Origin: an uncultured Pirellulales bacterium
GTDB lineage: Bacteria; Planctomycetota; Phycisphaerae; Sedimentisphaerales; Anaerobacaceae
DNA: 30,743 bases
Direction: 5' to 3'
Assembly: GCA_964539795.1 (NCBI GenBank)
Contig: CAZIKS010000006.1
Location: 9,738 to 40,480, forward strand
Shown one piece after another: positions 1 to 25,725 of the stretch. The notes under the pieces are model-generated. The model did no database searches and had not been told where the DNA came from. It was given only the letters and a program-made list of their open reading frames with translations. Position 1 is the stretch's first letter; each line of letters opens with the position of its first letter. The position numbers and the translations under genes were made by a program.

Positions 1-214
1 CTATATTTCTATCTACCATAAAACAAAATCCCTTTGTGGAACCTCTCTGACTTATCGGCGCTCCACATTTACGCCACAAGCTCACAAAACGCAAAATTTC
101 GCCTTTGGTCGCTTTTCAATAAGCCTTTGTGCTACTCTGCACAATTCAGTTACTTTAAGTTACCAATTTATACAACACACCTGCCTACGCAGCCGGTGCA
201 AATTACACAATCTC

Positions 215-1045
215 TTAAACAGCCTCTATTTTCTTCACAAATTCATCTATTATCCACTCAGGAGTCGATGCTCCTGCCGTAACACCTGCTGTTGTTTTAT
301 CAAAAACGCTACTTTTATCAAATTCTTTCCAATTTTGCAAATGAAACGTTTGATTATTATATTTTTTACACAACTCGGCTAGTCGCCGGGTATTGGCGCT
401 TTTCAGCCCACCCAGCACAAACATCACATCAACCCGTTTACAAAGCTCCACTGCTGATTCCTGCCGTCTTATTGTCTCTCTGCACAAAGTATTAATCACT
501 TTCAACTCGCTAAACCCCCATTTCGCTATCGCCCCAAGCATCCTGCTGAATTGTTCCGGCCCCTTCGTCGTCTGGCAAACTACTCCCAGCCTGCCGTTTT
601 TGGGAAGCTTATGCAAATCCGACTTATCGGCAATTACTGCCACATCATCAGCAAAACCCACAACCGCCTGAACCTCGGGATGATTTTCATCGCCGATTAT
701 CACTACTTTATAACCGTCCTGATTGAGCTGCCCTGCTATCTGTTGAACCCTTTTAACCAGCACACACGTCGCATCGATTATATCAAGCCCCCTTTCCCTG
801 AGTTTGGCTATCTGTTTGGGAGCTGCCCCATGAGAACGAATAAGGACCGTCCCGGAAACAATTTCTTCCACATTGTCAACTGTTTTCAGACCCGCTTTTG
901 CCAACCGCTCAACCATATCATTGTTATGGATAATCGGCCCGAGGCTGTAAACCTCTTTTTTCTCAGCCAATATCTTCTCAGCCATACTGATTGCGTTTTT
1001 CACCCCGTGACAAAATCCGCACTGCTCAGCTACTATAACCTTCAT
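215..1045 (-). CDS. ispH: 4-hydroxy-3-methylbut-2-enyl diphosphate reductase (IspH/LytB). The ORF-track frame continues to 1090 (MMILFGKLQADKRLG-), but the IspH-like N-terminus begins at the ATG at 1043-1045.
   Basis: The translation shows the IspH hallmarks: N-terminal GFCHGVKNAI (IspH Cys ligand region), HNNDMV, DATCVLVKRV, ENHPEV, VVCQTT, TLCRETIRRQ, GGLKSANTRRL and the C-terminal GVTAGASTP. Length of about 276 aa is typical. Confidence 0.9.
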   Translation of the reverse strand: MKVIVAEQCGFCHGVKNAISMAEKILAEKKEVYSLGPIIHNNDMVERLAKAGLKTVDNVEEIVSGTVLIRSHGAAPKQIAKLRERGLDIIDATCVLVKRVQQIAGQLNQDGYKVVIIGDENHPEVQAVVGFADDVAVIADKSDLHKLPKNGRLGVVCQTTKGPEQFSRMLGAIAKWGFSELKVINTLCRETIRRQESAVELCKRVDVMFVLGGLKSANTRRLAELCKKYNNQTFHLQNWKEFDKSSVFDKTTAGVTAGASTPEWIIDEFVKKIEAV

Positions 1046-1094
1046 ACCTAACCGTTTATCTGCCTGTAATTTTCCAAATAAAATCATCAAAACC

Positions 1095-1290
1095 GTTATT
1101 TTACACCAAAATCACCATCTATTCCACAAAAACCCGCCAAATAAACCCTGTTCCATCCCCCTCCGAACGCATAAAAAGCCGCAATAATCTGATAGATTCG
1201 CTACCTTCGCCACTACTTTTCCAAAAAATTTAAAAAATTTATAAAAAAAAACGTTATAAAACGAACTTTGCCCGCACTATAGTAACGGCG
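1095..1290 (+). repeat. Intergenic repeat-family copy R1 (diverged), upstream of ispH
   Basis: It shares the ordered modules ccaaaatc..ccacaaaaaccc, gcataaaaagccgcaa and aaaaacgttataaaacgaactttgcccgc with the other copies. Confidence 0.4.
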
Positions 1291-1305
1291 TAGAATAGGT
1301 ACGGT

Positions 1306-3186
1306 ATGAATAACAACAAAGATCAAGATTATGTTGCTCTGGCCGAGCAGGCCAGGCTTGGTGATAAGCCGAGTCTCGACAAACTAACCGAGCTGGTCCA
1401 GCCGAGATTGTACGCCTATGTTTACCGAATCATTCTGCAAAAAAACCTCGCTCAGGATATTGTTCAGGAGGCCCTGCTCGAAATGTTTAAAGTTATAGAA
1501 AACTTGGAAAAACCGGACAGGTTTTGGCCCTGGCTACGGGGTATCGCCTACAACAAAATTCGACTGCAATACGCAAGACAATACCGTCGTAGAACCGTTT
1601 CAATATCGAATCTTCAGCTTGAGGACACACAAAAGGCACGCCAGAAAGGTTTAGCAAGTCTAATGACCCAGGAATTGAGACAAATCGTTTTTAATGCTAT
1701 GCAAAGGCTAAAGCCCCCCCACCGCGCAGTCCTCGCTATGCGATGCTACGAAAACATGGAATATTCCCAAATCGCAGAACTCATGCAGAGAAACGAATTC
1801 AGCGTACGCTCTTTGTTCTTTCGGGCAAAAAGGTCTCTGCACAAACAACTTTCTCGCAGCGGATTTCGCAAAGAATTTTTCCTCACAGCATTGGTTATGT
1901 TTGGCAAAATGACCGCGCCAAGCGAAGCCTCCGCCGCGGAACTCTCCGTAACCGGAGCAACCGTCAATGCTGGCTTCACTGCCAATATGACCGGCCTGGC
2001 AACCAGCACACCCGTAATTATAACCCTCATTACCGCTGGCTTCTTGGGCGTCTGCTCTGTCACCGCCCCGTCATGGATTGATAAACCGATGTCCTGGGCT
2101 GAAAAAACTACTGTTGCGGTTAAAGAAAAATTTGCACAGCATTTGCCTGCCGCTAATCAACTCAACGATACAAAAGAGCTGTGTTGGTATTATTTCCCCG
2201 AAGAAACAACCGGCCCGGTTATGACAAGACTTCTCAAGTGGGACACCCAGACAGAAAAATCTTACCATCAGCTACTCCAAAACGACCGCGCAAACTACTT
2301 CTTCGACAGAACCACCGCAACCGTTTACATCAAAAATCACAGGAACTGGCAATCCAACCTGGCCGTTCAGCGACTCCCAACCGACAGCCTCCACTTGCGG
2401 CAGTTCCTTACAAAAAACGAAAACCAGCCGGACCAAATGCAGTATGTCCCCGCTGAAGGCCGGGCTCTGCTCGTTAGCATAAACCACAACGCCACTCAAC
2501 CACAGTTAACGTATAACTACAACGTTTTGGACGAGGAATACTTTAGATACAGCTTCCCTGATGGAGTAAAAGTTGTCGATAATCGAGACGCTATGCATAA
2601 ACGCGGCTGGACTTATTTCACTATTTCAGGCAATATGGCAGGAAAAAAAGTTTCTGGAAAAGGACGCCTTCCATTCGTTTACCACGCAACCAAACAATAT
2701 CCCCCCTGGCTGAAACTGCGGGTATATGGCCGGATGAACATTCACGATGGTGCCGAAGCAGCATTTATATATGATGATGCCGGCAGGATGCTCGCAAACT
2801 ACCCGACCGGAACTTTCTTCAAGGCTCTAACCCGCCCATGGATGGGACTGCATACTATCGATACGGTTCGAAGGGACGCCGCCGAAAAAAGCATCCCCTT
2901 CGAGACCAAATTCATACCAGCCGGAAATAAAGCCGAAATCGTTCTAAACGCACCGCAAATGAACTTGACTTACACCATCGACTTGGAAAAGGATATTATT
3001 GAAAAAATCATATTCTCAACGCCACAGACAATGGGTCTTTATGGTATGTTGAACTTTTATTATCTCGAGGATATTGACCGGCTTGACGATGACTTTACAG
3101 AGCCTTCCTGCGGCGATTCCACAATGCCGCAGGAAAAAGAAATGCCCCAACTGTGGCTGTTAAAATTAGCTGAACCTGGTTTGTAA
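1306..3186 (+). CDS. ECF (sigma-70 family) sigma factor with a long C-terminal extension. Sigma regions 2 and 4 occupy about aa 1-185. They are followed by a predicted TM helix (VIITLITAGFLGVCSVTAPSW) and a roughly 400-aa extracytoplasmic domain of unknown fold.
   Basis: The N-terminus has ECF region 2 (DIVQEALLEMFKVIENLEKPDRFWPWLRGIAYNKI) and region 4 (PPHRAVLAMRCYENMEYSQIAELMQRNEFSVRSLFFRAKRSL). A single continuous 626-aa ORF was seen and no stop separates the sigma part from the extension. Confidence 0.8.
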   Translation: MNNNKDQDYVALAEQARLGDKPSLDKLTELVQPRLYAYVYRIILQKNLAQDIVQEALLEMFKVIENLEKPDRFWPWLRGIAYNKIRLQYARQYRRRTVSISNLQLEDTQKARQKGLASLMTQELRQIVFNAMQRLKPPHRAVLAMRCYENMEYSQIAELMQRNEFSVRSLFFRAKRSLHKQLSRSGFRKEFFLTALVMFGKMTAPSEASAAELSVTGATVNAGFTANMTGLATSTPVIITLITAGFLGVCSVTAPSWIDKPMSWAEKTTVAVKEKFAQHLPAANQLNDTKELCWYYFPEETTGPVMTRLLKWDTQTEKSYHQLLQNDRANYFFDRTTATVYIKNHRNWQSNLAVQRLPTDSLHLRQFLTKNENQPDQMQYVPAEGRALLVSINHNATQPQLTYNYNVLDEEYFRYSFPDGVKVVDNRDAMHKRGWTYFTISGNMAGKKVSGKGRLPFVYHATKQYPPWLKLRVYGRMNIHDGAEAAFIYDDAGRMLANYPTGTFFKALTRPWMGLHTIDTVRRDAAEKSIPFETKFIPAGNKAEIVLNAPQMNLTYTIDLEKDIIEKIIFSTPQTMGLYGMLNFYYLEDIDRLDDDFTEPSCGDSTMPQEKEMPQLWLLKLAEPGL

Positions 3187-3439
3187 TAAGCCCTTAAAAC
3201 TCTTTTTTAGAAAAACTGATTTAACCTTAAAATGTGAAGGTTGGAGCGAGGCGGTGAGATGGTTCTTCACGGCCCCGCTCCCGTACATGAAATAAAAAAA
3301 GTTCTCGGCGTTATACACAGGACAAATGTCAAAGTCCGAGTGTAACCAATAGTGCGGAGAAAATTCTATTATTATAAAACGCTGCAAACTCGCTTCAAAA
3401 ATCAAGGCTCGCAGGGGCTTCTCTCTGCTTGAACTTATC

Positions 3440-4561: not shown

Positions 4562-7102
4562 TTATTCAAAAACCATCAGCCAGTTATTGACAAATACATC
4601 CAGATCCAGCCAATTGATGGAGTTATCAGGAGGAATACTTATATCACAGTCAGGATTATAGCTGGCTTGGCCGTCTTCAGTCAACCAAGCCGCTCCAAAA
4701 GTAGCAAAATCCTCAAAGTCCACATCGCAGTCCGGCTCAATATCGCCGACTATCGGTTCACTCGGTATTTCACCTATGAGCTTCAGGTTCGGCACCGCAG
4801 TGGCAACATACAAACCCGGATTATAGAAATCATCCCAGTACAGAGGGTCGCCGTGCGTACTGTTGCAAAACGCCAACATTACACGCTCGTTGCCCGTGTC
4901 TGAAACCATACAGTACCCGTCCGAACTGTAAAAGCTGTTGTTGTGGCTGAAGTCTATCAACAGATTGCTCGTGCCGTTGTACTCAAACGGCGTCTGGAAG
5001 TGAAAATTCTGCCATCCCGTTGAACTTATTGACTCATTGTTCTGATAGACAACTTTCCATTCGCTCATCTCAACAAACCATGGGCCCGGACCGGAGTAGT
5101 CACTTTTGCTCGTGTGTTTCATTCTGATTGTCCAGTTGTTGAGAGTCTGACCCGGAACTTGGTAAATATCGAGCGCCAAGTCGGTTATAGTTTGCTCGTC
5201 CCCTACATCACTGGACAGATAGATTACCTGCGTTCGGCAATCCTGGTAGTACGTATGTATCGGCCAATATGCGTACGCATTCGTCTGCGGCTCGTACGTG
5301 GTATATATATGATTGTCAACGTCCAATGTGACCGTGGCCGGCGCTGAGTCACCGCCTGTCGGGGATATGCCCCCGTCGTTGGCCTTGAAACAAAAGGTGT
5401 CCTCACCAGCAAAATACGTGCAGGGCCAGTACTCAACGACATTGCCGTTGCCCACGAGCATATAGGGTACACTTATTATCGCACCGGCCCCCGGGTCCGT
5501 CAATCGACCATGTTCGGGCAGCGTAGCTATCTTGTAGCTTAACTGTCCCGGTGGATTCGGTAAACCGTCGTCGGTGGCAATGAGGGTAATCGTCTTGGTT
5601 GTACCTGAAACAGCAGGGACACTCTGGCCGAACGCCGTGGGAGGACCTTCGTTCTGTGAAACGAAATCGATGCCCCATTTATTGCCCGAACTGCTCGAAA
5701 GGTCCGTTGACGTACCAGTGGTAGCAAATTGATTCGAAAAGATATAAGGTGCTTTGTCCGCACTTACCGTAAAGCTCTGCCCTGAAGGCACTTTAACTAT
5801 AGCGTAAATACCCGCCGCATCGCTTGTTCCCTGATAAGTACCTCCTCCGGTTGCTGTCACTACAACATCAGGAATCGGGTTACCCACAAGGTCCGTCACT
5901 CGCCCGCTGATAATCTCCCCCGAACCGCTCGTATACACGTTGTAAACACACTCCTCCAGTATATTGAAAGATGGCGTTGAGTTGACTGTCGGCAGATTGT
6001 ACCATGCATCGTCGTTGCCGCACCAGCCCATATTCACATGATGGTACAGTGTCGAAGAGGTATAGCCGTAACCGTCACAAACAACCGCGTGCCCGCCAAC
6101 CCCTCCCTTGATACCCAGTACCGTCGGTTGTTTGGCATCGAGGTTCGTGTTGACCATGTTTCTCAGCGTTGAGCCCAGGATAGGGTCCTGCGAGTATATT
6201 GAATTGGAATAGCCGAAGATTGCCACTAAATTCGTATCTGCGTAATGCAAATACCCAACAGAACCTCCGGACCCATATATTGTGCCTACGGCCTCGGCCA
6301 CATCATGGCAAAGGCTGCCTATCTCCTGTCTCTGGTATTCCGGCGTGCCTATCAAGGGCTCCAGCGGCATATTCGACCAGGTGTACGAACCTGGATATTC
6401 GTGGTACCGCATAAGTTGAGATGTCGCCGTTGCAACACACCCACAGGGGTAATTTGTGTTGCTGCCATCTGGGCCCGGTGGTGTGTAGTAGTTGTAGCAT
6501 GACTCCATATTGCTGTAACATTCAACATTGCTCTGCCCCCATTTGCTCTGCACAAGCGGAGCTACCCAGACCTCCGACACCGTGGAAAGTCCCAGCGGCT
6601 CAATTACATCTTCTGCCGCCGCCGACAGCTCCTGCCATTTGCTGTTGGCCTTAGCCGCCCGTGCCTGAAGAGCCTCGACGTTCGTCAGTTGTTTCGAAAC
6701 GTTGTCCCTTGCGAGTTCTTTCGCCGTTGCGACCCGGCCGGGAACGTCACTGCTGACCAGCGATCCAAGAGGGTTATCGTCCGAGCTGTCGTAAGTACCA
6801 TCATCAGCAAAACAAATAATCGGCTCAACAAAATCGTCTGCCGGCACAACCACAAAACCGGATGGCTCCAAATAAATAATGTAATAGCTCGGATTGCCCC
6901 TCTCATCGGTAAACGTCTCAATATCGCCAATCTTTCGACCGACAGTTGTACTGAGCGGGTTCACATTGGCTTTGAGCCAGCCTCGTACTGCTCTTCCAGC
7001 CTGCTCTGCTGTCGTTGGCCGGGCCCACAAACTGCCGCAACACAACTGCAAAACTACCAAAAAAACTGTAATCACAGGAATTGTTTTTCCCACTCTTCGC
7101 AT
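4562..7102 (-). CDS. Secreted multidomain cysteine peptidase of family C10 (streptopain/SpeB-like). It has a signal peptide, a C10 propeptide-like region, the catalytic domain, CarbopepD-regulatory-like and Ig-like beta domains, and a C-terminal dockerin-like Ca-binding repeat pair.
   Basis: The N-terminal signal peptide is MRRVGKTIPVITVFLVVLQLCCGSLWA. The SpeB-like catalytic Cys context is CGCVATATSQLMRYHEYP (compare SpeB HCVATATAQIMKYHNYP). The propeptide-like stretch is YYIIYLEPSGFVVVPADDF. The C-terminal DIEPDCDVDFEDFATFGAAWL / DISIPPDNSINWLDLDVFVNNWL pair resembles dockerin repeats. Confidence 0.8.
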   Translation of the reverse strand: MRRVGKTIPVITVFLVVLQLCCGSLWARPTTAEQAGRAVRGWLKANVNPLSTTVGRKIGDIETFTDERGNPSYYIIYLEPSGFVVVPADDFVEPIICFADDGTYDSSDDNPLGSLVSSDVPGRVATAKELARDNVSKQLTNVEALQARAAKANSKWQELSAAAEDVIEPLGLSTVSEVWVAPLVQSKWGQSNVECYSNMESCYNYYTPPGPDGSNTNYPCGCVATATSQLMRYHEYPGSYTWSNMPLEPLIGTPEYQRQEIGSLCHDVAEAVGTIYGSGGSVGYLHYADTNLVAIFGYSNSIYSQDPILGSTLRNMVNTNLDAKQPTVLGIKGGVGGHAVVCDGYGYTSSTLYHHVNMGWCGNDDAWYNLPTVNSTPSFNILEECVYNVYTSGSGEIISGRVTDLVGNPIPDVVVTATGGGTYQGTSDAAGIYAIVKVPSGQSFTVSADKAPYIFSNQFATTGTSTDLSSSSGNKWGIDFVSQNEGPPTAFGQSVPAVSGTTKTITLIATDDGLPNPPGQLSYKIATLPEHGRLTDPGAGAIISVPYMLVGNGNVVEYWPCTYFAGEDTFCFKANDGGISPTGGDSAPATVTLDVDNHIYTTYEPQTNAYAYWPIHTYYQDCRTQVIYLSSDVGDEQTITDLALDIYQVPGQTLNNWTIRMKHTSKSDYSGPGPWFVEMSEWKVVYQNNESISSTGWQNFHFQTPFEYNGTSNLLIDFSHNNSFYSSDGYCMVSDTGNERVMLAFCNSTHGDPLYWDDFYNPGLYVATAVPNLKLIGEIPSEPIVGDIEPDCDVDFEDFATFGAAWLTEDGQASYNPDCDISIPPDNSINWLDLDVFVNNWLMVFE

Positions 7103-7349
7103 TTTCCTCTCCTTTACAAAAAGTTGTTCCTTTGATTATGAGCCCAAAACCCACTCTCCTGCACTCTTTTTTAGATATTCCACTGCCTTAAGCATTTGCC
7201 TTGCTCCTCTGGAAATGGCAACTGAAAAGCATGTACATTATATCCCGAATCGCCTTTGAATTCAAACATTCTCTTTTTTTTGCCAAATATCAAGAGAAAA
7301 ATACTCTCCTTGTAACTGTAAAAATCGAGCGAAGTCCACACATCCACAA

Positions 7350-7478
7350 TACAACCGAAAAGCCCAAAATAGCTCATAAAATCACAAATCCATAAGACTT
7401 ATAGTATCAAAGACTTAAAAAACAAAAGACAATTAACATTCTGAAGATACGACTGCTGCTTCGAACACAGCCGGAAAT
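7350..7478 (+). repeat. Intergenic repeat-family copy R2, upstream of the C10 peptidase gene
   Basis: The sequence is caaccgaaaagcccaaaatagctcataaaatcacaaatccataagacttatagtatcaaagacttaaaaaa...ttaacattctgaag. Confidence 0.65.
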
Positions 7479-7499
7479 TATGTAAGTCAGGTCTTGCTT

Positions 7500-11652: not shown

Positions 11653-13260
11653 TCAGGGCTTTTTTGTAATAAGCCACATTGTTGCGGTAATAAACCAACT
11701 GACTGTCGTAATCATCATCAACGGCTTGACCTGCTCCAGTTCCATACGGCCTGCAAGTAACAATAACGACGCGCCGATTAACAAAATAAGCGATATCCAT
11801 GATATCACCCTTGCCAGCAGCATTATCGTCGTTACATTTGATGGACGCATTTTCTTTTGATAGAAAAAACTAAGTGTGATATACAGAAGCGCAGCAATAA
11901 ACCATCCCGGCAGAGAAACAAAGAACAGTTGTATCCCTGCATACTTAACCATTATCAGGCAAATACAAACCGTACAAATCCACGCAAGACCAGCCGCCCA
12001 GTTAAATAACCTCCCCGATACTTCGGCGTAATTGCTCTGCAGGCCTAATTTCTTGATAACCCAGAAATCAACAAAAATCACAGCTCCCATCGGCATCAGA
12101 AGCATGCCATAAAGAGCAACAAAACCAAGCAGTTTCATCGCGATAGCTGGGAACATCCCCATAATGGTAGCAACAGCGCCTGTCAGCAGTGTAACTGTAA
12201 AACGCGGCGTCTTTGGTATGATAGCCTGAAATGCAAGACCCGCACGGTAAATAGTAGGATTTGCAGTGGTCCATCCTGCGACTATCACGCATAATAAACC
12301 CGAAATGCCGGCGGCTTTATAAGCCAGTGGGCCCGGCAGAACGTCTGTATTGGTTGGTTCAAGGTAAAGCTGGTAGGCATAAAGAACAGACGCGCACAGC
12401 CATGCCATGAAATGGCCTACATACATACCCGCCCCTGATGCTATTGCATATCTGGATTTACGTGCAAAACGAAATACCGATAAATCAGACATCCCGATAT
12501 GCATTGCCATATTACAGAACCATGCAAAGAAGGTTACGTGCCAAAACGTGAATTTTATCTGGCCCGGTAAAGGTTCGCCGCCTTGCCAGATATGTTCCTT
12601 GGCCAGTTGCCATAAGTCGCCGGCGGATTTGATATCTGCGCCGGTTGTGTCGATAAACTGTTTTAAACCGATAAAACCAAACGCAAGAAAAACAAGCACC
12701 ATCCAGGGCGCGGCAATGTTGGCGAACCTGGCGACCGCTTTATAACCAAAAGCGGCAACAATCGAAATAAGGCTCCCAACTGCCAGCACCGCCAGCACCC
12801 AGCCTGCACTGTTCGGGTAAATGTCGTTAAGACCGGGCATCGGGAATTTGAACCATACCCCGACTGCCGTTGCTGAGACGGTAATCATCGAGCCTGCAAG
12901 GAAACAGAACATCACTCCGTTAGCAAGGTTGTAAAGCGTAACAAGATTTCTTCCGCATATCTTTTCCAACTGGTAGTACAAGGTCAGGCGGGCTCGGGTG
13001 GCAATGGGTGCACACAAAAACATCCAGCTTAAAACCGCCAATGCGTTGCCTGCAAGCAAACCCGCAATCAAATCAAATGCACCAACACCTGCGGCAACGA
13101 ACAACGGGCCTATCATCAGTTCGGTCCCGGCGCAGTGCTCGCCTGCGTACATCCCGACAAAGTCCCTGAAACCTAACAGGGCATTTTGTGGGACCGGCTG
13201 ACGCTCGTATTCATCATGGCCGTGCTGTTGTATCTGGTCCTGCTCGTCTGACATTTTCAA
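11653..13260 (-). CDS. Polytopic membrane transporter of the APC superfamily, NCS1/cytosine-purine permease-like, with about 12 TM plus an extra C-terminal TM pair. It heads the rhaDBA operon and is a candidate rhamnose or rhamnose-derivative importer.
   Basis: About 14 hydrophobic helices are present. The LGFRDFVGMYAGEHCAGTELMIGPLF region is NCS1-like, and FFAWFCNMAMHIGMSDLSVFRFARK resembles the NCS1 TM6 N..D.SR motif. The family assignment is by eye only. Confidence 0.65.
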   Translation of the reverse strand: MKMSDEQDQIQQHGHDEYERQPVPQNALLGFRDFVGMYAGEHCAGTELMIGPLFVAAGVGAFDLIAGLLAGNALAVLSWMFLCAPIATRARLTLYYQLEKICGRNLVTLYNLANGVMFCFLAGSMITVSATAVGVWFKFPMPGLNDIYPNSAGWVLAVLAVGSLISIVAAFGYKAVARFANIAAPWMVLVFLAFGFIGLKQFIDTTGADIKSAGDLWQLAKEHIWQGGEPLPGQIKFTFWHVTFFAWFCNMAMHIGMSDLSVFRFARKSRYAIASGAGMYVGHFMAWLCASVLYAYQLYLEPTNTDVLPGPLAYKAAGISGLLCVIVAGWTTANPTIYRAGLAFQAIIPKTPRFTVTLLTGAVATIMGMFPAIAMKLLGFVALYGMLLMPMGAVIFVDFWVIKKLGLQSNYAEVSGRLFNWAAGLAWICTVCICLIMVKYAGIQLFFVSLPGWFIAALLYITLSFFYQKKMRPSNVTTIMLLARVISWISLILLIGASLLLLAGRMELEQVKPLMMITTVSWFITATMWLITKKP

Positions 13261-13297: not shown

Positions 13298-13465
13298 GAT
13301 AATATCAAAATTACCCTTCAAACGCAAACCCTCAATTTAACACCTTCTGGCTGTAATTAGTAAGAAAAATTCCTACAACCAAAATACAACCCAAACCCCC
13401 ATTAGCGTGTAAAATCAAAAAAATAATGAACTTTTTAAACATATGTTTTAGGACAGTCGGCTTTG
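13298..13465 (+). repeat. Intergenic repeat-family copy R3, upstream of the transporter/rha operon
   Basis: The sequence is aatatcaaaatt..ggctgtaattagtaagaaaaattcctacaaccaaaatacaacccaaaccccc...aatgaactttttaaac. It is near-identical to R7 over roughly 60 bp. Confidence 0.7.
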
Positions 13466-13672
13466 TCGGAAAAAATTCATTTTATGAAGGCTGGAGGGGA
13501 TTAGTTTTCATCTCTGCCTACTGAATACATAAAATATCTAATATCACCTGTGGGTGGTGATTATAGCTCGACCAGCTTAGGAAATCGACTGAAATCTACA
13601 AGATATGTCTTCCATAAGTTTTTGCATTGCAACATTGTTACATTTGGATGACTTTTGACACCCTCCGACATA

Positions 13673-14885: not shown

Positions 14886-14940
14886 TATAATATCAAAATA
14901 TTCTTACGGCTGCAATCGATGAGTTTTTAATTTAGTCCTG
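14886..14940 (+). repeat. Truncated or degenerate repeat-family copy R4, upstream of the hydrolase gene
   Basis: Only the left-hand modules are present: ataatatcaaaatattcttacggctgcaatcgatgagtttttaatt. Confidence 0.3.
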
Positions 14941-14989
14941 GAAGATTACAAAATTATATCACAAAAGTATAAACCTTTGAAAAATTATA

Positions 14990-16012
14990 CTATGATTTTT
15001 GTTCGAGTTCGGCACGGAATTTCGGCAGAGCGTTCGGGTAATTATCCCGCAGGAATTCAACTAACTTTTCTCTTATATGACAGCGTAAGCTCCAGGCCAT
15101 TGAGGCGTCGGCGGCGCTCATTAAGGCCCTCAGTTCCACCGTTTTTTCAGTGGTCTTTGTTACCTGAAGAACGCATACCTTTTTGTCCCAAAGCTCTGAT
15201 TCGTTGAGCAATTCCTGGAGTTTTTGGCGGATTGCATCGACCGGTACGCTGTAATCCACATATATGAAAACGGTTCCGAGTATATCAGCCGACTTTCGCG
15301 TCCAGTTCTGGAACGGTTTTTCTATGAAGTATGTTATTGGAACGATAAGACGACGCTGGTCCCAGATTTTTACCACTACATAAGTCAGGGTAATCTCTTC
15401 AATTCTGCCCCATTCATTTTCAACGATAACAACATCGTCGATACGTATCGGCTGGGTAAATGCTATTTGCAGTCCCGCGATAAAAGTGCCGATGGTCCTT
15501 TGTGCGGCCATACCCACGACGATCCCGATTATACCCGCTGAAGCGAGAATTGTAGTACCAAGCTGGCGTATATTCTCAAAGGTCATTAGCATCGTACCCA
15601 GGGCAAGAATGCAGACAACTACGAAAACTATCCGCTTGAGCACACGAAACTGAGTGTATATTTTTCGGGCTCTCAGATTGTCTTTTGCTTCGACATTGAA
15701 ACGGGCAAGAAGAAATGCTTCCAGGACACTTGTTAATTTTATAATCAGCCAGGATACAGTGCCGATAAATAGCAGGCTGAGTAGATGTTTTTCACCTTTA
15801 AAAGTTTCACCAGGTGCCATTGTTTGAATTATCACTCTTACGATAAACACTACGGCCGTCCATTGCAGAGGTCTGTACAGGTGGCTGACAACAGCTTCGT
15901 CGAGTGTCCCTTTTGTACGCCTGGCGATGGCAAGAAATATCCTGTACAATACGAAATGGCCGACCATACCTACTGTAAAAGCTATAAGAAATAACCATTT
16001 TACCTCATTCAT
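14990..16012 (-). CDS. mscS: Small-conductance mechanosensitive channel (MscS family). The ORF-track frame extends to 16072, but the ATG at 16010-16012 (MNEVKW...) is the likely start.
   Basis: Three N-terminal TM helices are followed by the MscS pore/beta-domain signature GTTILASAGIIGIVVGMAAQRTIGTFIAGLQIAFTQPIRIDDVV and the C-terminal cytoplasmic vestibule. Confidence 0.85.
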   Translation of the reverse strand: MNEVKWLFLIAFTVGMVGHFVLYRIFLAIARRTKGTLDEAVVSHLYRPLQWTAVVFIVRVIIQTMAPGETFKGEKHLLSLLFIGTVSWLIIKLTSVLEAFLLARFNVEAKDNLRARKIYTQFRVLKRIVFVVVCILALGTMLMTFENIRQLGTTILASAGIIGIVVGMAAQRTIGTFIAGLQIAFTQPIRIDDVVIVENEWGRIEEITLTYVVVKIWDQRRLIVPITYFIEKPFQNWTRKSADILGTVFIYVDYSVPVDAIRQKLQELLNESELWDKKVCVLQVTKTTEKTVELRALMSAADASMAWSLRCHIREKLVEFLRDNYPNALPKFRAELEQKS

Positions 16013-16082
16013 AATTGACCTCTTAACAAAGATTTCCCATTTATATCTGCTCGGTAAAGTTACAAACCTCAATTTTTATACA

Positions 16083-16275
16083 ATATCAAATATGCCTTGA
16101 AAATCAACCTTCCTTATGGAATCTGAGTCTTGACTTGTCGTAAAAGCCGCCAAAATCCCAAATAGCCCACAAAACCACAAAAATTTTTAATCCATCAGAC
16201 TTGTAATATCAAAGAATTAAAAAATCGCAAAAATGACGAACATTTTGAACATCCGATTGCTGCCGTCTTTGCTGC
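16083..16275 (+). repeat. Intergenic repeat-family copy R5 (full length), upstream of mscS
   Basis: The modules are aatatcaaatatgccttgaaaatcaaccttccttatgg, ccaaaatcccaaatagcccacaaaaccacaaaaat, aatccatcagacttgtaatatcaaagaa and the core aatcgcaaaaatgacgaacattttgaacatccgattgctgcc. Confidence 0.75.
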
Positions 16276-17084: not shown

Positions 17085-17228
17085 GAATTTACAACCGTAA
17101 TAAGTCGGAAAATGCCCCTGCAGCCAAAACAAAATATAAATCACAAAACTGCAAAAATCCTAAATCCATAAGGTTGATAAAATCAAAGTCTCTAAAAGAG
17201 TTAACATTTTGAATATACTATTGCCCTA
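17085..17228 (+). repeat. Intergenic repeat-family copy R6, upstream of the Cys-rich gene
   Basis: The sequence is cagccaaaacaaaatataaatcacaaaactgcaaaaatcctaaatccataaggttgataaaatcaaagtc...gttaacattttgaatatac. Confidence 0.7.
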
Positions 17229-17244
17229 ACATACATAGCTATCG

Positions 17245-19155
17245 CTACCAGCCTCCACCTCCACCTCCGCCGCCACCTCCGCCGCCACCACTGGACCCAC
17301 CTCCACTGCCCGAGCCCCTGGGTGACGAGGACAGGCTGGAACCGATAGCGGAGCTCATGGCAGACAACCCGCTTAACACAGATGATACAGACTCAGTACC
17401 CGCCAGTCCTGAAGAGCGTTGAGAATAAGGGCGGTAATAGGGAATATAGACATTCGAGACATCGGATATATGGCCGAGGTAATCAGTAGTGACGCCAAAA
17501 GCAATAGCCCAAGGTAGAAGGTCCTCGAAATTTAGACCCATTGTCTCACTGCGTTTGAGTGAACTGCGCATTTCTTGCAGACGCTGCATTATAGCTGCGC
17601 CTTGCTTACTTTTTCGGGCCATGGCAGCACCGGACATGCAAATCAATGAGCCGATGAAAACACCGGTAATACCTGTATCAAACATCCAGCCGCTGCTCTG
17701 GTAGTTTTTAAGCGACACTGTGAAAATCACTCCCAAACCGATAACAACAAAAGGAACAAAGAAAACACTTTTCAACAAACCTTTGAAACCGTTACGCTTC
17801 ACGTTGGATACGAGCATCATGCCGGGAATTCCAGCAAACATTGATCCCCACAAGGCAAAAAAAAGCACCTCCACATCCTCAATGGCCGCCAGTGCCAAAG
17901 AAGGCAAGATAACAATCACGCCTATCATAAGAAAAAGCATTTTGGCTTTTTTCGGCAGTATCACGAACCAGCCCAACGTTTGAACCTGTTGCCACGCTTT
18001 TTTCTTGATATTAGGAATGTGTCGATAAAAGTGATTCTCTAACTGGTCGCTGCTTACTTTTTGTCCTTCAGCTAAATGGTCCAGAAATAGCTTCTTTATC
18101 AGAAGTTCTTCGTAGCTGGCCAGTTCGTCTTTCTCAGGTACTTTAGCCAGTTCAAATTCGTAGCAACCGGGTTTGAGCATCTGCTTCTGTCTGATTTCAT
18201 CGATGTGAATATAACCCCGTCGGGCTAAGTCAATGATTGTCGCCGTTATATCCTGAACGTCAAAGCTCTCATCGATCAGTAGCCCAGCCAGCCCGGGCAT
18301 GATATTAAGAACGTCAATATTATAAACTTGTTGTGGTTCTGGTACCGGATCCCTGCCGACCTTAGACCATATGATTAATAACATAAGCACCGCTGCAACT
18401 GCACCAACTGGAAAGACCCAGGGCTTGATATGGAAGGTATAGGTATTAGTTGCACTGCTGTAATTTTCCAGCATGCCCTTTGGCAACGATACTTTTATCT
18501 CGAATTTGTCTTTCCGGTCGATTCCCTTGGCGCTGAAATGAACCAATCGTCTGTCTTGCTGATTGATTTGCCATTTTGCCTGAGGGGCCTCGGTATAAAA
18601 GATGACCTCGAGCAGGTCTGGCTCGACTGCTTCCGGAAGGGTCAGCGTTACAGCGGCCTCGTTAATGCGGTACTCGCAATCTCGAATCAGTGGTTTCCAG
18701 TAAAGAACATCACGCCTGCGATACTGACCAATAGCTCCCCTGATTCGATAGCGGATTTGAAAAGTGGTTGTTGTGTTGCTGTAGGGTGGATCCGCTGCAT
18801 TACGGCTGCGCCACTTGACATTAATCTTGCCTTTTACCTCTTCGACGATGTAGCCGCCCTTACGCCTGATACTGCCTTTCTCATAAACTTCATCGTTCTC
18901 ACTAACATCTATAATTTCAATCCCATCACATCCGTGCAGCGAGTAATAGCGATAAAGACCGTTCCAGTCTCCGCTTAGCCGTACCCGTTGTGTTTCCACA
19001 ACATCGATGGACGTGTCCCTGTTAAGGGTCATCTTCACATCAATATGCTCATAGACAAGCTGCCTCTGTAAAGCTATACCCGGCTTAGCTGAAAACGACA
19101 AAAAACCGGCCAACAAAAAAACCAAATATTTATATGGGATACGGCAACTATTCAT
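17245..19155 (-). CDS. DUF2207-family membrane protein. It has a signal peptide, a large extracytoplasmic domain, about 4 TM helices, a cytoplasmic region, and a Ser/Gly-rich tail ending in poly-Gly. The likely start is the ATG at 19153-19155 (MNSCRIPYKYLVF...), preceded by GAGGAA. The ORF frame continues to 19218.
   Basis: The architecture and the C-terminal ...SGSGGGSSGGGGGGGGGGGGGW tail are characteristic of DUF2207. A good RBS (gagagGAAcaaaATG) sits at the internal start. Confidence 0.78.
   Translation of the reverse strand: MNSCRIPYKYLVFLLAGFLSFSAKPGIALQRQLVYEHIDVKMTLNRDTSIDVVETQRVRLSGDWNGLYRYYSLHGCDGIEIIDVSENDEVYEKGSIRRKGGYIVEEVKGKINVKWRSRNAADPPYSNTTTTFQIRYRIRGAIGQYRRRDVLYWKPLIRDCEYRINEAAVTLTLPEAVEPDLLEVIFYTEAPQAKWQINQQDRRLVHFSAKGIDRKDKFEIKVSLPKGMLENYSSATNTYTFHIKPWVFPVGAVAAVLMLLIIWSKVGRDPVPEPQQVYNIDVLNIMPGLAGLLIDESFDVQDITATIIDLARRGYIHIDEIRQKQMLKPGCYEFELAKVPEKDELASYEELLIKKLFLDHLAEGQKVSSDQLENHFYRHIPNIKKKAWQQVQTLGWFVILPKKAKMLFLMIGVIVILPSLALAAIEDVEVLFFALWGSMFAGIPGMMLVSNVKRNGFKGLLKSVFFVPFVVIGLGVIFTVSLKNYQSSGWMFDTGITGVFIGSLICMSGAAMARKSKQGAAIMQRLQEMRSSLKRSETMGLNFEDLLPWAIAFGVTTDYLGHISDVSNVYIPYYRPYSQRSSGLAGTESVSSVLSGLSAMSSAIGSSLSSSPRGSGSGGGSSGGGGGGGGGGGGGW
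17248..17330 (-). repeat. Low-complexity (GGN)n coding repeat encoding the poly-Gly/Ser tail of the DUF2207 protein
   Basis: The plus-strand sequence is a simple repeat: ccagcctccacctccacctccgccgccacctccgccgccacc... Confidence 0.8.
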
Positions 19156-19267
19156 TTTGTTCCTCTCGAAAATTGACTCTGCATTCGGTTCGTCTTTATT
19201 ATATTTGAAATTTTCCAAATAACCCTGTATATCCTTTCTTAACTAACCTGCTAAGCCTCTTTCCCAA

Positions 19268-19435
19268 TAGAATATCAAGTCTGTCTTGAAATGCAACCTT
19301 TCTTATCGACTCTGTGTGATGCCCTTACGGCTGTAATTAGTAAGGAAAATTCATACAACCAAAATACAACCCAAACCCCAAATAGCTCATAAAATCGCAA
19401 AAATGATGAACGTTTGGAACTTCCGATTGCTACTC
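19268..19435 (+). repeat. Intergenic repeat-family copy R7 (full length), upstream of the DUF2207 gene
   Basis: The modules are aatatcaagtctgtcttgaaatgcaacctttcttatcga, ggctgtaattagtaaggaaaattcatacaaccaaaatacaacccaaacccc, aaatagctcataaaatcgcaaaaatgatgaacgtttggaacttccgattgct. Confidence 0.75.
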
Positions 19436-19572
19436 TGGCCACGAGCGGATGAAATGTCCTATGCCGCAGACCTTGTGGTGGTAATGAGTAAAACCAAATT
19501 ACATATGGTTTTTTTAACGCTACAGTAATGATTTTGTATCAAATGGAGAATAATAGAAGTAAAAAAATGGAC

Positions 19573-21518: not shown

Positions 21519-21643
21519 ATTTGCGTTCCCTTAAAATTTCCGCAGCTTTTTTTTCATAATCAACATTTTCTATGTCAAACAGTTATGAAAAGGCATTATA
21601 TGTCCCGTTCTGCAACTTTATTCATTTGCAAACCGGCTGGAAA

Positions 21644-23104: not shown

Positions 23105-23165
23105 AATAATTCTCCTTTACTTAAAATTATATTAGTGTTTTTATTGCTAGCTTACAAAATGACTT

Positions 23166-23726
23166 CTACTCCACAACTGCCGTTTTTCCCGCAACCGACT
23201 TTATTTTGACAAACTCTCCTCTTTTGTATTCTCTCTCGGGATCAGCCGCTCTTGCATTGAAGTAAGTACTTTGACCTGTTTGTTCGTTGGTTGCTTCTAT
23301 TTCGCCGGTACCTCCGTCTTTTGGTATTGGAACAACCACTCTGCCCTGTTTCCCGACAAATGAGGCCAGCCTAATCTGGCTTGTTGATTGTTGTTTGTAC
23401 AGAAGCTTAAGCAGATTATAACCGAGAAACCAGGCTGTTCCTCCACCGACCAGACCACAAATAACATGATGGAGGGGCCACTTAAAATAAAAAGACAAAT
23501 ATCCGCCTGCGCCAAAACCAACCAGGAAAAATAATATCAGTTTTAAACTTAATATACCGGGCTCTCCGAAATCGCCTGCACCTGCGTCTACATCCAAATC
23601 CGCATCAATATCCATATCGACATCTGCGTCAACATCTGTATCTGCGCCGAACACCGCCATTAATACCAGAAGCAGGCCGGGTATAATGGCCAGCAGACCA
23701 TAAATTAATAATACACTCATAATCAA
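23166..23726 (-). CDS. NfeD-like (YqiJ-type) membrane protein with a C-terminal OB-fold. It is the partner of the adjacent flotillin.
   Basis: It has two TM segments, an acidic D-rich loop (DTDVDADVDMDIDADLDVDAG), and a C-terminal beta-rich domain (GKQGRVVVPIPKDGGTGEIEA...GEFVKIKSVAGKTAVV). It is positioned immediately upstream of the flotillin gene, as in yqiJK operons. Confidence 0.75.
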   Translation of the reverse strand: MIMSVLLIYGLLAIIPGLLLVLMAVFGADTDVDADVDMDIDADLDVDAGAGDFGEPGILSLKLILFFLVGFGAGGYLSFYFKWPLHHVICGLVGGGTAWFLGYNLLKLLYKQQSTSQIRLASFVGKQGRVVVPIPKDGGTGEIEATNEQTGQSTYFNARAADPEREYKRGEFVKIKSVAGKTAVVE

Positions 23727-23767
23727 TCTCCTTTCTGAGTATTGCCTGTTTTTCTAAATCGAAATTT

Positions 23768-23808
23768 CAAATCGCAACGCCTGCAAAAAACACGAACTCC
23801 GAATCCAC
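23768..23808 (+). repeat. Isolated copy of the repeat core motif, lying between ybjQ and the nfeD-like gene inside the cluster
   Basis: aaatcgcaacgcctgcaaaaaacacgaactccgaatcc aligns to the core aatcgcaaaaatgacgaacgttttgaacttccgattgc. Confidence 0.45.
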
Positions 23809-23809
23809 G

Positions 23810-24124
23810 TTACTCCACTACGACCGCTGTGCCGTAGGCTAAAATTTCCGATGCGCTCTGCATAACCATTGATGTGGCAAATTTCATACCCACAACCGCA
23901 TTTGCACCGAGCTTTTGTGCCTCTTCTATCATTCGGTCGATTGCCTGTTCCCGGGATTCGGCCATCATCTTCGTATAATCGCTTATCTCTCCTCCAACCA
24001 GGTTTCTAAGGCCCGCCATAATGTCTCTTCCGATATGCCTGGCACGAATCGTATTACCTCGAACAAGCCCCAGATGCTTTATAATTTTTCTCCCCTCGAT
24101 ATCTCCAGTCGTCGATAGCAGCAT
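23810..24124 (-). CDS. ybjQ: YbjQ/UPF0145 family protein (putative heavy-metal-binding domain)
   Basis: Collinear with E. coli YbjQ in MLLSTTGDIEGRKII..., RNLVGGE and LGANAVVGMKF...YGTAVV. It starts 4 nt after the anti-sigma stop. Confidence 0.85.
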   Translation of the reverse strand: MLLSTTGDIEGRKIIKHLGLVRGNTIRARHIGRDIMAGLRNLVGGEISDYTKMMAESREQAIDRMIEEAQKLGANAVVGMKFATSMVMQSASEILAYGTAVVVE

Positions 24125-24128
24125 TTTT

Positions 24129-24575
24129 TTATCTCCTTACATCTTTGTAACGGTCTTTTTTCCAGAAATAAAGTCTTTCCCGCAATACTGACACAAACAA
24201 AATTGCCAATCCCGCTATCAACGCCAAGAGGCCAGCTTTTAATATAATATCGACGGTCGGGTCTTTGATGAGATCTTCTATCGCCTTGAAGCCGCCGTAT
24301 ATCAACAGCAGGATAGCGGATATTGAAAACAAAATCCACCCCACGCCTCGCTCGATACGGTTATACACACCTGACCAGTACAGCCTCCATATCCGATCTT
24401 CGGGCTCAACGAACTTTACTTCGTCAGTGATTCGATTCAGACGCTTAAACTCTTCCAATTCCCCCCTGCATACAGGACAGGATGCCAAATGTTCTTCAAA
24501 AACCTTTTTTTGCTCACAGTCAAGCTCATCGTCCAGATAAGCCATCATCAAATCTACATAATCGGGGCAAGTCAT
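24129..24575 (-). CDS. Membrane-anchored anti-sigma factor with a zf-HC2 motif
   Basis: The N-terminus carries H-x3-C-x2-C (HLASCPVCRGE). A single TM helix (ILFSISAILLLIYGGF...LLALIAGLAILFVSVL) follows. It lies directly downstream of an ECF sigma gene. Confidence 0.8.
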   Translation of the reverse strand: MTCPDYVDLMMAYLDDELDCEQKKVFEEHLASCPVCRGELEEFKRLNRITDEVKFVEPEDRIWRLYWSGVYNRIERGVGWILFSISAILLLIYGGFKAIEDLIKDPTVDIILKAGLLALIAGLAILFVSVLRERLYFWKKDRYKDVRR

Positions 24576-24592
24576 TGCTGCCTACCTCCTTT

Positions 24593-25153
24593 TTATTTGT
24601 CTAAAAGCTCTTTTAGTTTTTTACGTGCATTATATAACCTGCTCATCACAGTGCCTCTCGTGCATAAAAGAATCTGAGCAATCTCTTCGTAAGAAAGGTT
24701 CTGAAAGTGTCGCAATACTATCATCTCGCGATGTTTTTCATTGAGCTGGTCAATCGCTTTCCAAACACGTTCCTCTACCTCATTTCTTTCTGCAACTGCA
24801 TGTGGGTCAAAACAGCTGCCGGCACTGCTCGCAACTTGGACATCGTCAACTTCTTCTAAGTTCTGTTGATGACGCCCGCTCCGCTTTCTCAAGTGACTAA
24901 AACACAGGTTTTTCAGAATCTGATAGAACCAGGGAAAGAATTTTCGTTTTGGATTAAGCTGATTTATCTTGGAATATGCCCTGAAAAAGGCCTCTTGAGA
25001 CAGGTCCAGTGCATCTTCATGATTACCCACAAGCCCGAGCGCAATAAAATATGCCTGTTTCATATATTTTCTGACAATAGCTTCAAATGCTTTTGCAGAC
25101 CCCCTCCGACATTGCTGTATTGCTATAGATTCTTCTTCACAAAAGCAGTTCAA
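24593..25153 (-). CDS. ECF sigma factor (RpoE-like, sigma-70 regions 2 and 4)
   Basis: Region 2 reads DLSQEAFFRAYSKINQLNPKRKFFPWFYQILKNLCFSHLRKR. Region 4 reads REMIVLRHFQNLSYEEIAQILLCTRGTVMSRLYNARKKLKELL. Confidence 0.9.
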   Translation of the reverse strand: MNCFCEEESIAIQQCRRGSAKAFEAIVRKYMKQAYFIALGLVGNHEDALDLSQEAFFRAYSKINQLNPKRKFFPWFYQILKNLCFSHLRKRSGRHQQNLEEVDDVQVASSAGSCFDPHAVAERNEVEERVWKAIDQLNEKHREMIVLRHFQNLSYEEIAQILLCTRGTVMSRLYNARKKLKELLDK

Positions 25154-25434
25154 TTTCTCCGACTCCCGGCCTTGAGTTTAAATTCATTCGACAAAGCCAC
25201 ATTCTTTCATACTTATATACGCTTTATGGCATTACTTTATTCAATGCTAATACCATTTTTTTCCCTAATCGGCAAGGCAAAGTTGGCGATTCTTGACAGG
25301 CCTGAAAATGCAATAATTCATCTGGGAACACGCGAAATTCTGACTTTCCGGTAGCAAAGTGCCAAAAATGATGCTCTGAATGTATTTATTTCCTCCCGTC
25401 TTCTTTATGAAGTCAAAAAGTATTGTGACAAGGG

Positions 25435-25595
25435 GTTTGTAATGTGTGAGCAAAATCCATACAACTGTACTACAGCCAAAACAAAATATATCTCACAAAA
25501 CCGCAAAAATTACAAATCCATAAGACTTGTAATATCAAAGACTTTAAAAACTGCATAAAATGACAAACGTTTTGAACTTCCGTTGGTTGACCACG
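25435..25595 (+). repeat. Intergenic repeat-family copy R8, upstream of the ECF sigma / anti-sigma / flotillin cluster
   Basis: The sequence is cagccaaaacaaaatatatctcacaaaaccgcaaaaattacaaatccataagacttgtaatatcaaagactttaaaaactgcataaaatgacaaacgttttgaacttccgttgg. Confidence 0.75.
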
Positions 25596-25725
25596 CTCTA
25601 AATATACGTATGTCTAAACCATCCGCTTCTTTATCCTTTCCCCTTTGAGGTTGTGATGGTCGAGATTGACACAGTTACATGTTTCTATACTATAGCTCTT
25701 TTTGGCCCTTCAATGGAATCTTCCT

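Follow-up and report, generated by a model that had tools for sequence, protein, structure and literature searches.

Why should unrelated genes of one bacterial genome stand behind related copies of the same non-coding DNA? The question is raised by a 30,743-nt stretch of contig CAZIKS010000006.1 from an uncultured planctomycete of the class Phycisphaerae (the whole stretch is called the window here), in which an earlier reading of the sequence, referred to below as the original prediction, had pointed out a high-copy family of intergenic elements oriented toward minus-strand genes and carrying a dyad-symmetric core of ~38 bp. As explanations it had offered a shared promoter or operator of one regulator, a structured 5′-untranslated region (5′-UTR) or small-RNA family, or a repeat of the repetitive extragenic palindromic (REP) type. 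An oriented intergenic repeat family tied to the 5′ ends of genes is real, as six profile matches on one strand of the window attest. On balance, we lean toward the view that these repeats are dispersed, recombining and reusable promoter-region cassettes, which act as double-stranded DNA and not as structured RNA. By the operational definition discussed below the family consists of putative mobile promoters (PMPs); on this view it would be neither the operator of one regulon nor a classical transposon.

Copies and modules of the repeat family

In the direction of the genes the unit reads A, an optional B, C, D and E, to which some copies add a leader hairpin (F) and a mini open reading frame (ORF; G). 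A–D form a T-rich, unstructured block of ~150 bp that is usually followed by what would be an ordinary promoter, E, and the whole modular unit spans ~150 to 330 bp. The original prediction had listed the modules in the reverse of this order, and its “core” is module A, the end most distant from the gene. The modules are:

Module U (optional): GGAYATWYAATCC, upstream of A
Module A: GGATGTTCAAAACGTTCATCATTTT, the distal end
Module B (optional, ~51 bp): TAAGTCTTTGATATTAC..CTTATGGATTT, also given as TTTTTTAAGTCTTTGATATTAC..CTTATGGATTT
Module C: TTTTTGCGATTTTATGAGCTATTTGG..GGTTGTA-N4-GGTTGTA, in fuller form TTTTTGCGATTTTATGAGCTATTTGG..TTTGGTTGTA-N4-GGTTGTATGG
Module D: ..TTACAGCCGTAAGG, in fuller form ATTTTCCTCAC..ATTACAGCCGYAAGGTCA
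Module E: TTGnnn, a spacer of 16-17 nt with TGA at its end, and TATTnT; predicted promoter
Module F (many copies): leader hairpin, e.g., GCTCAG-TGGCGTAG-CTGAGC
Module G (many copies): ..AGG..ATGGGAAAT.., a mini-ORF of 5-8 codons that ends at the Shine-Dalgarno sequence of the real gene

An nhmmer profile of 155 positions, built from 28 copies of which only three come from the window, matches six window copies with E-values of 3e-35 to 2e-10, all of them intergenic and on the minus strand; the same search returns no plus-strand copy in the window. The copies at 7308-7445, 13343-13430 and 17115-17213 lie outside the seed alignment and are therefore independent confirmations. Direct-repeat families (D1, D3 and D5) connect the claimed loci at 80-85% identity across 85-98 nt, the clearest pairs being 13343-13440 with 19323-19420 (family D5; 98 nt, 85% identity) and 16149-16233 with 25475-25559 (85 nt, 80% identity), while the 38-nt core occurs twice at ≤3 mismatches where none is expected. 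At least nine copies had been claimed. Six of these are solid, and a seventh, at 14886-14940, is a genuine partial copy that consists of a D tail and module E (14887-14915) without A–C. The remaining three loci (1095-1290, the window start and 23768-23808) give no profile match at E ≤ 10 with filters off and none in sensitive BLAST, and resemble the family only in short motifs. A contig that overlaps the window end (L037) adds two copies shortly beyond it, so that the window and L037 together hold eight copies in ~38 kb, every one aimed at the next gene, at a local density of ~1 per 4-5 kb. The copies in the window are:

R2, 7308-7450, minus strand: diverged A at 7424-7450, B at 7387-7417, C and D (profile match 7308-7445, E = 4e-17, non-seed); upstream of the C10 peptidase gene
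R3, 13343-13445, minus strand: degenerate A at 13420-13445, C with its GGTTGTA pair at 13374-13391, and D, without B (match 13343-13430 to profile positions 67-154, E = 3e-12, non-seed)
R3 module E, 13299-13327, minus strand: predicted promoter TTGCGT-N17-TATTAT, spacer ending in TGA, upstream of the permease-rhamnose operon
R4, 14887-14915, minus strand: module E only, predicted promoter TTGCAG-N17-TATTAT, spacer ending in TGA, overlapping the D tail (..TTGCAGCCGTAAG); upstream of an alpha/beta hydrolase gene, with no A–C profile match
R5, 16139-16254, minus strand: A at 16230-16254, B at 16189-16219 and C, without D (E = 2e-26)
R5 module E, 16080-16107, minus strand: predicted promoter TTGATT-N16-TATTGT, spacer ending in TGA, upstream of the MscS-type channel gene
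R5 module G, 16023-16040, minus strand: putative mini-ORF ATGGGAAATCTTTGTTAA (MGNLC*), whose stop abuts the Shine-Dalgarno sequence GAGG of the main gene
R6, 17115-17218, minus strand: diverged A at 17194-17218, B at 17163-17192 and C (profile match 17115-17213, E = 2e-10, non-seed), beginning 27 nt past the stop of the DUF2207 gene
R7, 19322-19424, minus strand: A at 19400-19424, C with its GGTTGTA pair at 19354-19371, and D at 19323-19345, without B (profile match 19322-19421, E = 3e-17); U motif GGACATTTCATCC upstream at 19447-19459
R7 module E, 19269-19296, minus strand: predicted promoter TTGCAT-N16-TATTCT, spacer ending in TGA, upstream of the DUF2207 gene
R7 module F, 19238-19257, minus strand: leader stem-loop GGCTTAGCAGGTTAGTTAAG, a weak form of the family hairpin
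R8, 25431-25581, minus strand: A at 25557-25581, B at 25515-25545, C and D (115 bits, E = 3e-35), ~280 nt upstream of the extracytoplasmic function (ECF) sigma gene 24593-25153, with no module E directly after

The mixing and matching of modules described by the original prediction is also real. B is missing at 13343-13430 and 19322-19421, and other copies lack D and E or have substitutes for them. Among the copies retrieved from other genomes and contigs (numbered loci with the prefix L), D–E are exchanged for other shared modules in L006/L025 and in L009/L034. At L021 (~270-400) and L030 (~2800-2930), A–D are followed by an AT-rich block (AAATATTTTTGAAAAAAATTTATTTTTT) that resembles an upstream promoter (UP) element and by TTGACA-N17-TATAGT. 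This near-consensus promoter indicates that canonical sigma-70 signals are in use in the lineage and that A–D can precede promoters besides E. The 5′ edge of A–D, at GGATG, is fairly sharp, and the 3′ boundaries are ragged and modular. Median pairwise identity among copies is 71%, and A–D are 62-78% identical between different genomes. In some loci (L014:90-126, L016, L023:180-220, L029:1626-1660) one to four heptamer repeats, ATATTGG or ATATTGA, stand directly upstream of A; in appearance they are products of slippage at the opening bases of A (TTGGATGTT), and their number varies among near-identical contigs.

DNA motifs, predicted promoter and leader

Does the main body of the unit act as RNA? 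For A–D the idea of a structured 5′-UTR or small RNA fails. Among 30 copies aligned with RNAalifold, neither strand has a conserved structure (-2.0 and -1.0 kcal/mol), single copies fold no better than shuffled sequences (mean z-scores of -0.6 and -0.2 for the two strands), and no Rfam family was found for any module in the window and eight loci, in scans at gathering thresholds and at E ≤ 1. The nested dyad of the original prediction (AATCG...CGATT and CAAAA...TTTTG) does not hold up as a family feature. In the same 30 copies its outer helix is paired in 45% of cells, worse than the 63-70% of structures slid by one column, with G-C and C-G pairs in just one or two copies, its inner helix is an A-run opposite a T-run, and no covariation is seen; the nested form is specific to two copies. 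A reading in which A–D are nevertheless transcribed as a functional RNA, either a small RNA or a structured 5′-UTR or 3′-UTR element, could draw on module B, which holds a promoter-like TTGCAA-N17-TATTAC (the last three spacer nucleotides being TGA) that could start a transcript through C and D, and on the TATAAT-like U motif found ~35 nt upstream of A in some copies. However, the “-10” of B ends in a conserved C and not in a T, some copies do without B, and the folding energies and z-scores, the Rfam scans and the absence of covariation in both the dyad and the GGTTGTA/TACAGCC pairing all speak against it, and we hold a functional RNA to be very improbable.

What is conserved in A–D instead are blocks of sequence: GTTCA-N4-GTTCA, TAAGTCTTTGATATTAC, and GGTTGTA-N4-GGTTGTA together with an inverted TACAGCC, so that the period of the direct GGTTGTA repeats is 11 bp and a third copy runs in the opposite sense. 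As inverted arms, GGTTGTA and TACAGCC are 83% pairable with covariation not above shuffles, a pattern typical of sequence motifs and not of a helix. An inverted repeat TTGCAAAT/ATTTGCAA that flanks B is 78% pairable, with weak covariation (nine double changes vs. 4.8 expected, a value reached by 17 of 500 shuffles). The T-tracts of A–D give a power peak at a period of 10-10.5 bp (0.52 vs. 0.125 in shuffles), which suggests intrinsic curvature. These blocks, conserved without RNA structure, lend themselves to a rival reading in which A–D would be a selected cis-regulatory platform, activating or silencing, bound by one lineage-specific DNA-binding or nucleoid-associated protein. Its candidate recognition motifs would be the 11-bp-spaced GGTTGTA repeats or palindromic TTTGCAAA-like sites flanking B, and copy number would reflect function and not selfish or neutral spread. 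The period and the inverted third copy of GGTTGTA, and the pairable inverted repeat around B, count in favour of this reading. The distribution of the copies, to which we return below, bears on this platform as well.

Module E would provide the link to transcription. Across 17 aligned copies only the TTG of the -35, the TG of the extended -10 and TAT..T are invariant, and the spacer of 16-17 nt varies in sequence; E is placed 45-105 nt upstream of start codons, and C and the -35 are 64-77 nt apart. The hexamers, the spacer and the distance to the start codon agree with those of sigma-70-type promoters, and E is predicted to be a housekeeping promoter of this type with an extended -10. The shared promoter of the original prediction survives in this form: the gene-proximal module that it wrote on the plus strand as aatatcaa..cttgaaa.gcaacctt reads on the gene strand as a putative sigma-70-type promoter. 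The original prediction was also right to reject an ECF promoter for the core, the GGAAC-like and CGTC-like motifs in A (GGAWGTTCAAAACGTTCRTCA) being only ~11 nt apart, vs. ~16 nt.

Of the two leader modules, F is the only module of the unit that looks like an RNA helix, on modest statistics and related sequences. The family hairpin (GCTCAG-TGGCGTAG-CTGAGC) is paired in 88.7% of cells vs. 21-44% in slid controls and has compensatory double changes in three of six pairs; 18-34 of 500 shuffles match the covariation values, the copies being related. A strict scan for F-like hairpins gives nine matches vs. 4.5 expected, only five of them in leaders, and F is therefore not a widespread independent motif. 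Its loop consensus (Y)GGCGTAG (L013:62-81, L033:1676-1695) resembles, as we take it, the ops element GGCGGTAG, which recruits RfaH-type NusG paralogues, a likeness that may be coincidence. After the leader hairpin, the motif ATGGGAAAT.. recurs at 10 or more loci, and within 5-8 codons its frame is closed by a stop. In its longer form, ..AGG..ATGGGAAAT(S)TCAGAT.., it constitutes the mini-ORF MGN..*, with its stop at or just before the Shine-Dalgarno sequence of the main gene (window 16023-16040, minus strand; L008, L011-L014, L023, L027, L031, L033, L034). As even its third codon positions are conserved, G may represent either a motif at the RNA level or a means of translational coupling.

Several other identities were tried and rejected. 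On one strand A–D contain the frame ATGGATTTGCAATTTTTG..., a hydrophobic peptide in the consensus, which stops and indels break in most copies, and the antisense frame ATGATGAACGTT... has no Shine-Dalgarno sequence and a variable length. An RNA hairpin in D (CCTTAC..GTAAGG) is not kept in other copies. The opposite strand of B (TATCAAAGACTTA) matches the integration host factor (IHF) consensus WATCAANNNNTTR, but its N positions are invariant and two consensus positions vary. Sigma-54, LexA, cre, dif and ECF motifs gave no fit in A on inspection. Integron attC sites were set aside, as housekeeping genes lie between the copies, the element precedes operons on their 5′ side and R''/L'' symmetry is lacking. 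A promoter of the Bacteroidetes type (TTTG / TAnnTTTG), prompted by the C10 peptidase, was dropped given the canonical -35, the extended -10 and the Planctomycetota matches.

Distribution and turnover at orthologous sites

The 25-nt module A was used as a search pattern against GTDB species-representative genomes and metagenome contigs. Four loci were retrieved from the species-representative genomes, namely one Phycisphaerae metagenome-assembled genome (MAG), two MAGs labelled “Pirellulales” and one Planctomycetota single-amplified genome, and 28 from metagenomes, ~26 of which are genuine copies with further modules. Two matches are due to chance: L024 (61% GC), and L040, the single viral-collection match, which lies inside a 1293-aa ORF without other modules. 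In about one third of the genuine metagenome loci the match is within ~150 nt of a contig end, as expected of a repeat that breaks assemblies. The copies are always intergenic, and with duplicates removed the next gene is co-oriented 25 times and opposite six times. At L016 two copies point in opposite directions, one at its own downstream gene and the other off the contig end, and full copies also stand between convergent genes at L005 (with a decayed -10) and L007. Among the downstream genes are those of a C10 peptidase, a permease/rhamnose operon, a hydrolase, an MscS channel, a DUF2207 protein, an ECF sigma factor, hemerythrin, MutS, a GntR regulator, a phosphotriesterase, a lipid A acyltransferase and an ankyrin protein. 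Their Pfam families differ, and in a masked all-vs-all BLAST the flanks are unrelated except for duplicate contigs of one locus, so that the copies do not stem from duplicated genes.

Orthologous sites differ in whether they carry the element, and in what form. A–D are absent upstream of DUF2207 orthologues at 77, 66 and 49% identity; the leader is partly conserved there, and an F-like hairpin is kept in L042, the 66%-identity orthologue. Three more distant permease loci (L048-L050, 60 kb) hold no copy. The contigs L046 and L047, which were assembled independently and agree in their arrangement, are ~90% identical to the window at the nucleotide level and have three synteny blocks in common with it. 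The ends of these blocks in L046 fall on copies of the repeat: one lies inside R2 at the B/C boundary, after which an aldehyde dehydrogenase replaces the C10 peptidase; one inside the C module of R3, whose module E is conserved; and one ~10 nt upstream of the -35 TTG of the R5 module E, at the edge of R5. A–C of R5 are thus absent upstream of the MscS gene in L046, while E, the leader and the gene are conserved. Because its upstream flank differs, this site marks a rearrangement junction and not a clean excision; no clean pair of a filled and an empty site turned up. Exchange is also seen between L023 and L029, which have both flanks in common and differ in the C–D segment. These orthologous sites argue against a conserved operator at fixed promoters and favour a dispersed repeat with turnover and recombination. 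With downstream functions this diverse, and an element gained, lost or swapped at the orthologous promoters of close relatives, the proposal of one regulator and one regulon is unlikely.

As for gene order in L046 and L047, the permease-rhamnose operon is inverted relative to the hydrolase and MscS genes (window 13425-13657 vs. L046), and an ECF-sigma/YbjQ cluster adjoins the operon, the aldehyde dehydrogenase standing in place of the C10 peptidase (window 7100-7384 vs. L046). Several rearrangements separate the window from these ~90%-identical contigs within ~16 kb.

How does the binding platform fare in this setting? The co-orientation with the downstream gene (25 vs. 6) and the constrained distance from C to the -35 are what it would lead one to expect, although common descent alone predicts constrained spacing. 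R8 is 96% identical to its orthologous copy in L018, where the flanking coding sequences (CDSs) are 87-94% identical, and R8 and the entire intergenic region are at least as conserved as the CDSs. However, the same promoter and gene stand without A–C in L046, A–D are missing at orthologous loci and in 60 kb of three related genomes, copies occur between convergent genes, and the downstream functions are unrelated. We regard the platform as unlikely.

The same turnover could come from a non-autonomous mobile element with an outward promoter, comparable to the Correia elements of Neisseria and either like a miniature inverted-repeat transposable element (MITE) or derived from IS200/IS605 or another recombinase. 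Eight copies in ~38 kb, occurrence in several species, assemblies that break at copies, a fairly sharp 5′ boundary, copies in non-promoter contexts and presence or absence at an orthologous promoter would all be natural for such an element. Against this, four full copies and their flanks have no terminal inverted repeats, every inverted pair in them being either internal or a short chance match; the units are ragged and modular at their 3′ boundaries; neither a target-site duplication nor an adjacent transposase was seen at any copy; the sole “empty” site is the rearrangement junction described above; and the copies, at a median pairwise identity of 71%, are old and diverged. Such an element is, in our estimate, an unlikely source of the family, and slightly less credible than the platform.

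We therefore prefer the dispersed promoter-region cassette, and propose the following course of events. Module E would supply the transcription of whichever gene follows, and A–D may form a curved or protein-binding upstream region that modulates or insulates the E promoter, with F and G as leader features that some copies carry along. The family would have multiplied and been reshuffled within a Sedimentisphaerales-like sub-lineage of the Phycisphaerae, through the duplication of copies and through ectopic recombination or gene conversion among them. This mode of spread would account for the swapped modules and for the coincidence with rearrangement breakpoints.

A number of observations weigh against this preference. 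The identity of A–D across genomes (62-78%) and the rather sharp GGATG edge would agree as well with an element mobilised in trans or with a binding platform under selection. The evidence for mosaics and breakpoints comes from metagenome contigs, in which repeats can cause chimeric joins, a worry that is eased by the common arrangement of the independent assemblies L046 and L047. The conservation of module A at the loci found with it is partly by construction, because A was the search pattern, and the z-score of the T-tract periodicity is inflated because the copies are homologous and not independent. Lastly, E is called a promoter from its sequence pattern alone. A generic promoter and terminator scan found no enrichment in the region, with 22 sigma-70 sites vs. 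23.8 expected in shuffles; its scoring rule overlooks the E sites, and as the scan is thus uninformative, the call draws on the conservation pattern and position of E.

A bolder version is that A–D and E-F-G together make up a new kind of self-propagating expression cassette, in which an upstream module for binding or curvature is combined with a promoter, a 5′ hairpin that stabilises and a mini-ORF that couples. A dedicated protein would either mobilise the cassette or bind A–D genome-wide as a lineage-specific, global upstream activating sequence. We consider this doubtful; if true, one repeated module would drive and co-tune a large fraction of the operons in these Phycisphaerae and would channel the rearrangement of their genomes. 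The family deserves attention beyond that version. To our knowledge, almost nothing is known about the promoters and leaders of the Phycisphaerae and Sedimentisphaerales, which are mostly uncultured. The repeats offer a replicated alignment of apparent housekeeping signals, comprising a promoter (TTGnnn-N16/17 with the extended -10 TGnTATTnT), a 5′ hairpin and a mini-ORF. They would represent regulatory DNA that evolves by reuse, in which whole promoter regions are copied, mosaicked and exchanged among unrelated genes. They coincide with synteny breakpoints between ~90%-identical genomes, explain intergenic contig breaks in these organisms and could serve as a lineage marker.

Known repeats and the genes of the window

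Is such a family familiar from other bacteria? The searchable literature yielded nothing specific on intergenic repeats of Planctomycetes or Phycisphaerae and no description of this family. Correia elements of Neisseria (Correia repeat enclosed elements, CREE, or neisserial miniature insertion sequences, NEMIS) are intergenic, ~100-160 bp long and abundant, can supply functional promoters to adjacent genes and are linked to rearrangements; they end in 26-bp terminal inverted repeats, duplicate a TA target and are processed as RNA hairpins by RNase III. The present family is an intergenic repeat of a similar kind, putatively promoter-supplying and associated with rearrangement, but terminal inverted repeats, a TA duplication and such hairpins are not seen in it, and it is strongly biased in how it faces genes. 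BOX elements of Streptococcus pneumoniae (boxA-boxB-boxC) and the enterobacterial repetitive intergenic consensus (ERIC) sequences, or intergenic repeat units (IRU), are intergenic, 100-200 bp long, modular or mosaic and non-coding; they are reported to affect the expression of neighbours, are largely palindromic and are predicted to form stable stem-loops. The intergenic position, the variable module content and the lack of an encoded protein are common to both, whereas A–D are essentially without predicted structure and have a candidate promoter at their end.

UP elements occupy the interval from about -40 to -60 and do not form long homologous repeats. Like them and like the intrinsically curved DNA upstream of strong bacterial promoters, A–D are rich in A/T-tracts, helically phased and upstream of a putative sigma-70 -35 box, and a classical UP-like block is present in L021 and L030; in contrast, the conserved block here lies at about -60 to -210 and has specific non-A/T motifs. 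REP sequences are palindromes of 20-40 bp with a GTAG or CGTC tag, typically at gene 3′ ends and mobilised by REP-associated tyrosine transposases (RAYTs) (PMC3733652). REPs and their composites, bacterial interspersed mosaic elements (BIMEs) and REPINs, resemble the family as high-copy extragenic repeats that also occur in bacteria of the Planctomycetes-Verrucomicrobia-Chlamydiae group (PMC3733652). The REP-like proposal falls away nonetheless, as no tagged palindrome of this kind is present and the unit is at least 150 bp long, non-palindromic and 5′ of genes.

The closest counterparts are PMPs, defined as stretches of 50-100 nt with ≥80% identity upstream of non-homologous CDSs (PMC3488235). 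Stretches of 98 nt at 85% and of 85 nt at 80% identity stand here upstream of CDSs with different Pfam families. As in the family, PMPs are homologous stretches upstream of non-homologous genes, within a genome and across genera, with promoter-like sequence; their copies diverge near the translation start, and large families are suspected to be trans-mobilised or spread by recombination (PMC3488235). The present unit differs in being longer and explicitly modular, with its most conserved part 60-210 bp upstream of the predicted promoter and not at it. Its density, ~1 per 4-5 kb, may be set against the largest surveyed PMP family of 93 promoters in one genome, and its host is an uncultured planctomycete, the main text of that survey being without the word Planctomycetes (PMC3488235). 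The family is notable for its length, modularity, local density and coincidence with rearrangement breakpoints in an understudied phylum.

The window itself has a GC content of ~45% and nearly all of its genes on the minus strand. Their order runs from IspH/LytB through an ECF-sigma fusion protein, the C10 peptidase, the permease with the rhamnose-catabolism operon and the hydrolase to the MscS-type channel, DUF2207, an ABC ATPase with flotillin, the ECF sigma factor with an anti-sigma factor, and DUF4139 paralogues. JGI and ENA metagenome contigs carry DNA identical or near-identical to the window, and the homologues of the permease are MAG proteins named Sedimentisphaerales, Phycisphaerales or Anaerohalosphaeraceae. 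A protein of 626 aa (1306-3186, plus strand) begins with an ECF-type sigma domain, whose regions 2 and 4 fall in its first 180 aa, and continues in a long C-terminal extension without a Pfam match.

Around R8, the DUF4139-like paralogues 25864-27216 and 28403-30280 have stretches of 72-86% identity in common (26649-26867 vs. 29206-29424), and a 32-nt segment from the 3′ ends of both recurs in the intergenic region upstream of R8 (25732-25763, 25898-25929, 28446-28477). The similar paralogues and the recurring segment point to a gene duplicated in tandem, of which a 3′ fragment was left behind. Gene 25864-27216 ends in a canonical intrinsic terminator (AAAGCCCGCTTTATGGCGGGCTTT and a T-run; 25798-25826, minus strand), ~215 nt upstream of module A of R8. 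As this gene has its own terminator, R8 is not its terminator.

The longest ORFs over-extend the genes at 14990-16072, 11653-13260 and 17245-19218. The MscS start is most likely ATG 16012, after GAGG, the permease is called at ~475 aa in many orthologues, including the closest (94% identical), vs. 535 aa for the window ORF, and the DUF2207 start is probably the ATG within GAACCGAATGCAG. Leaders are therefore longer than the ORF list implies.

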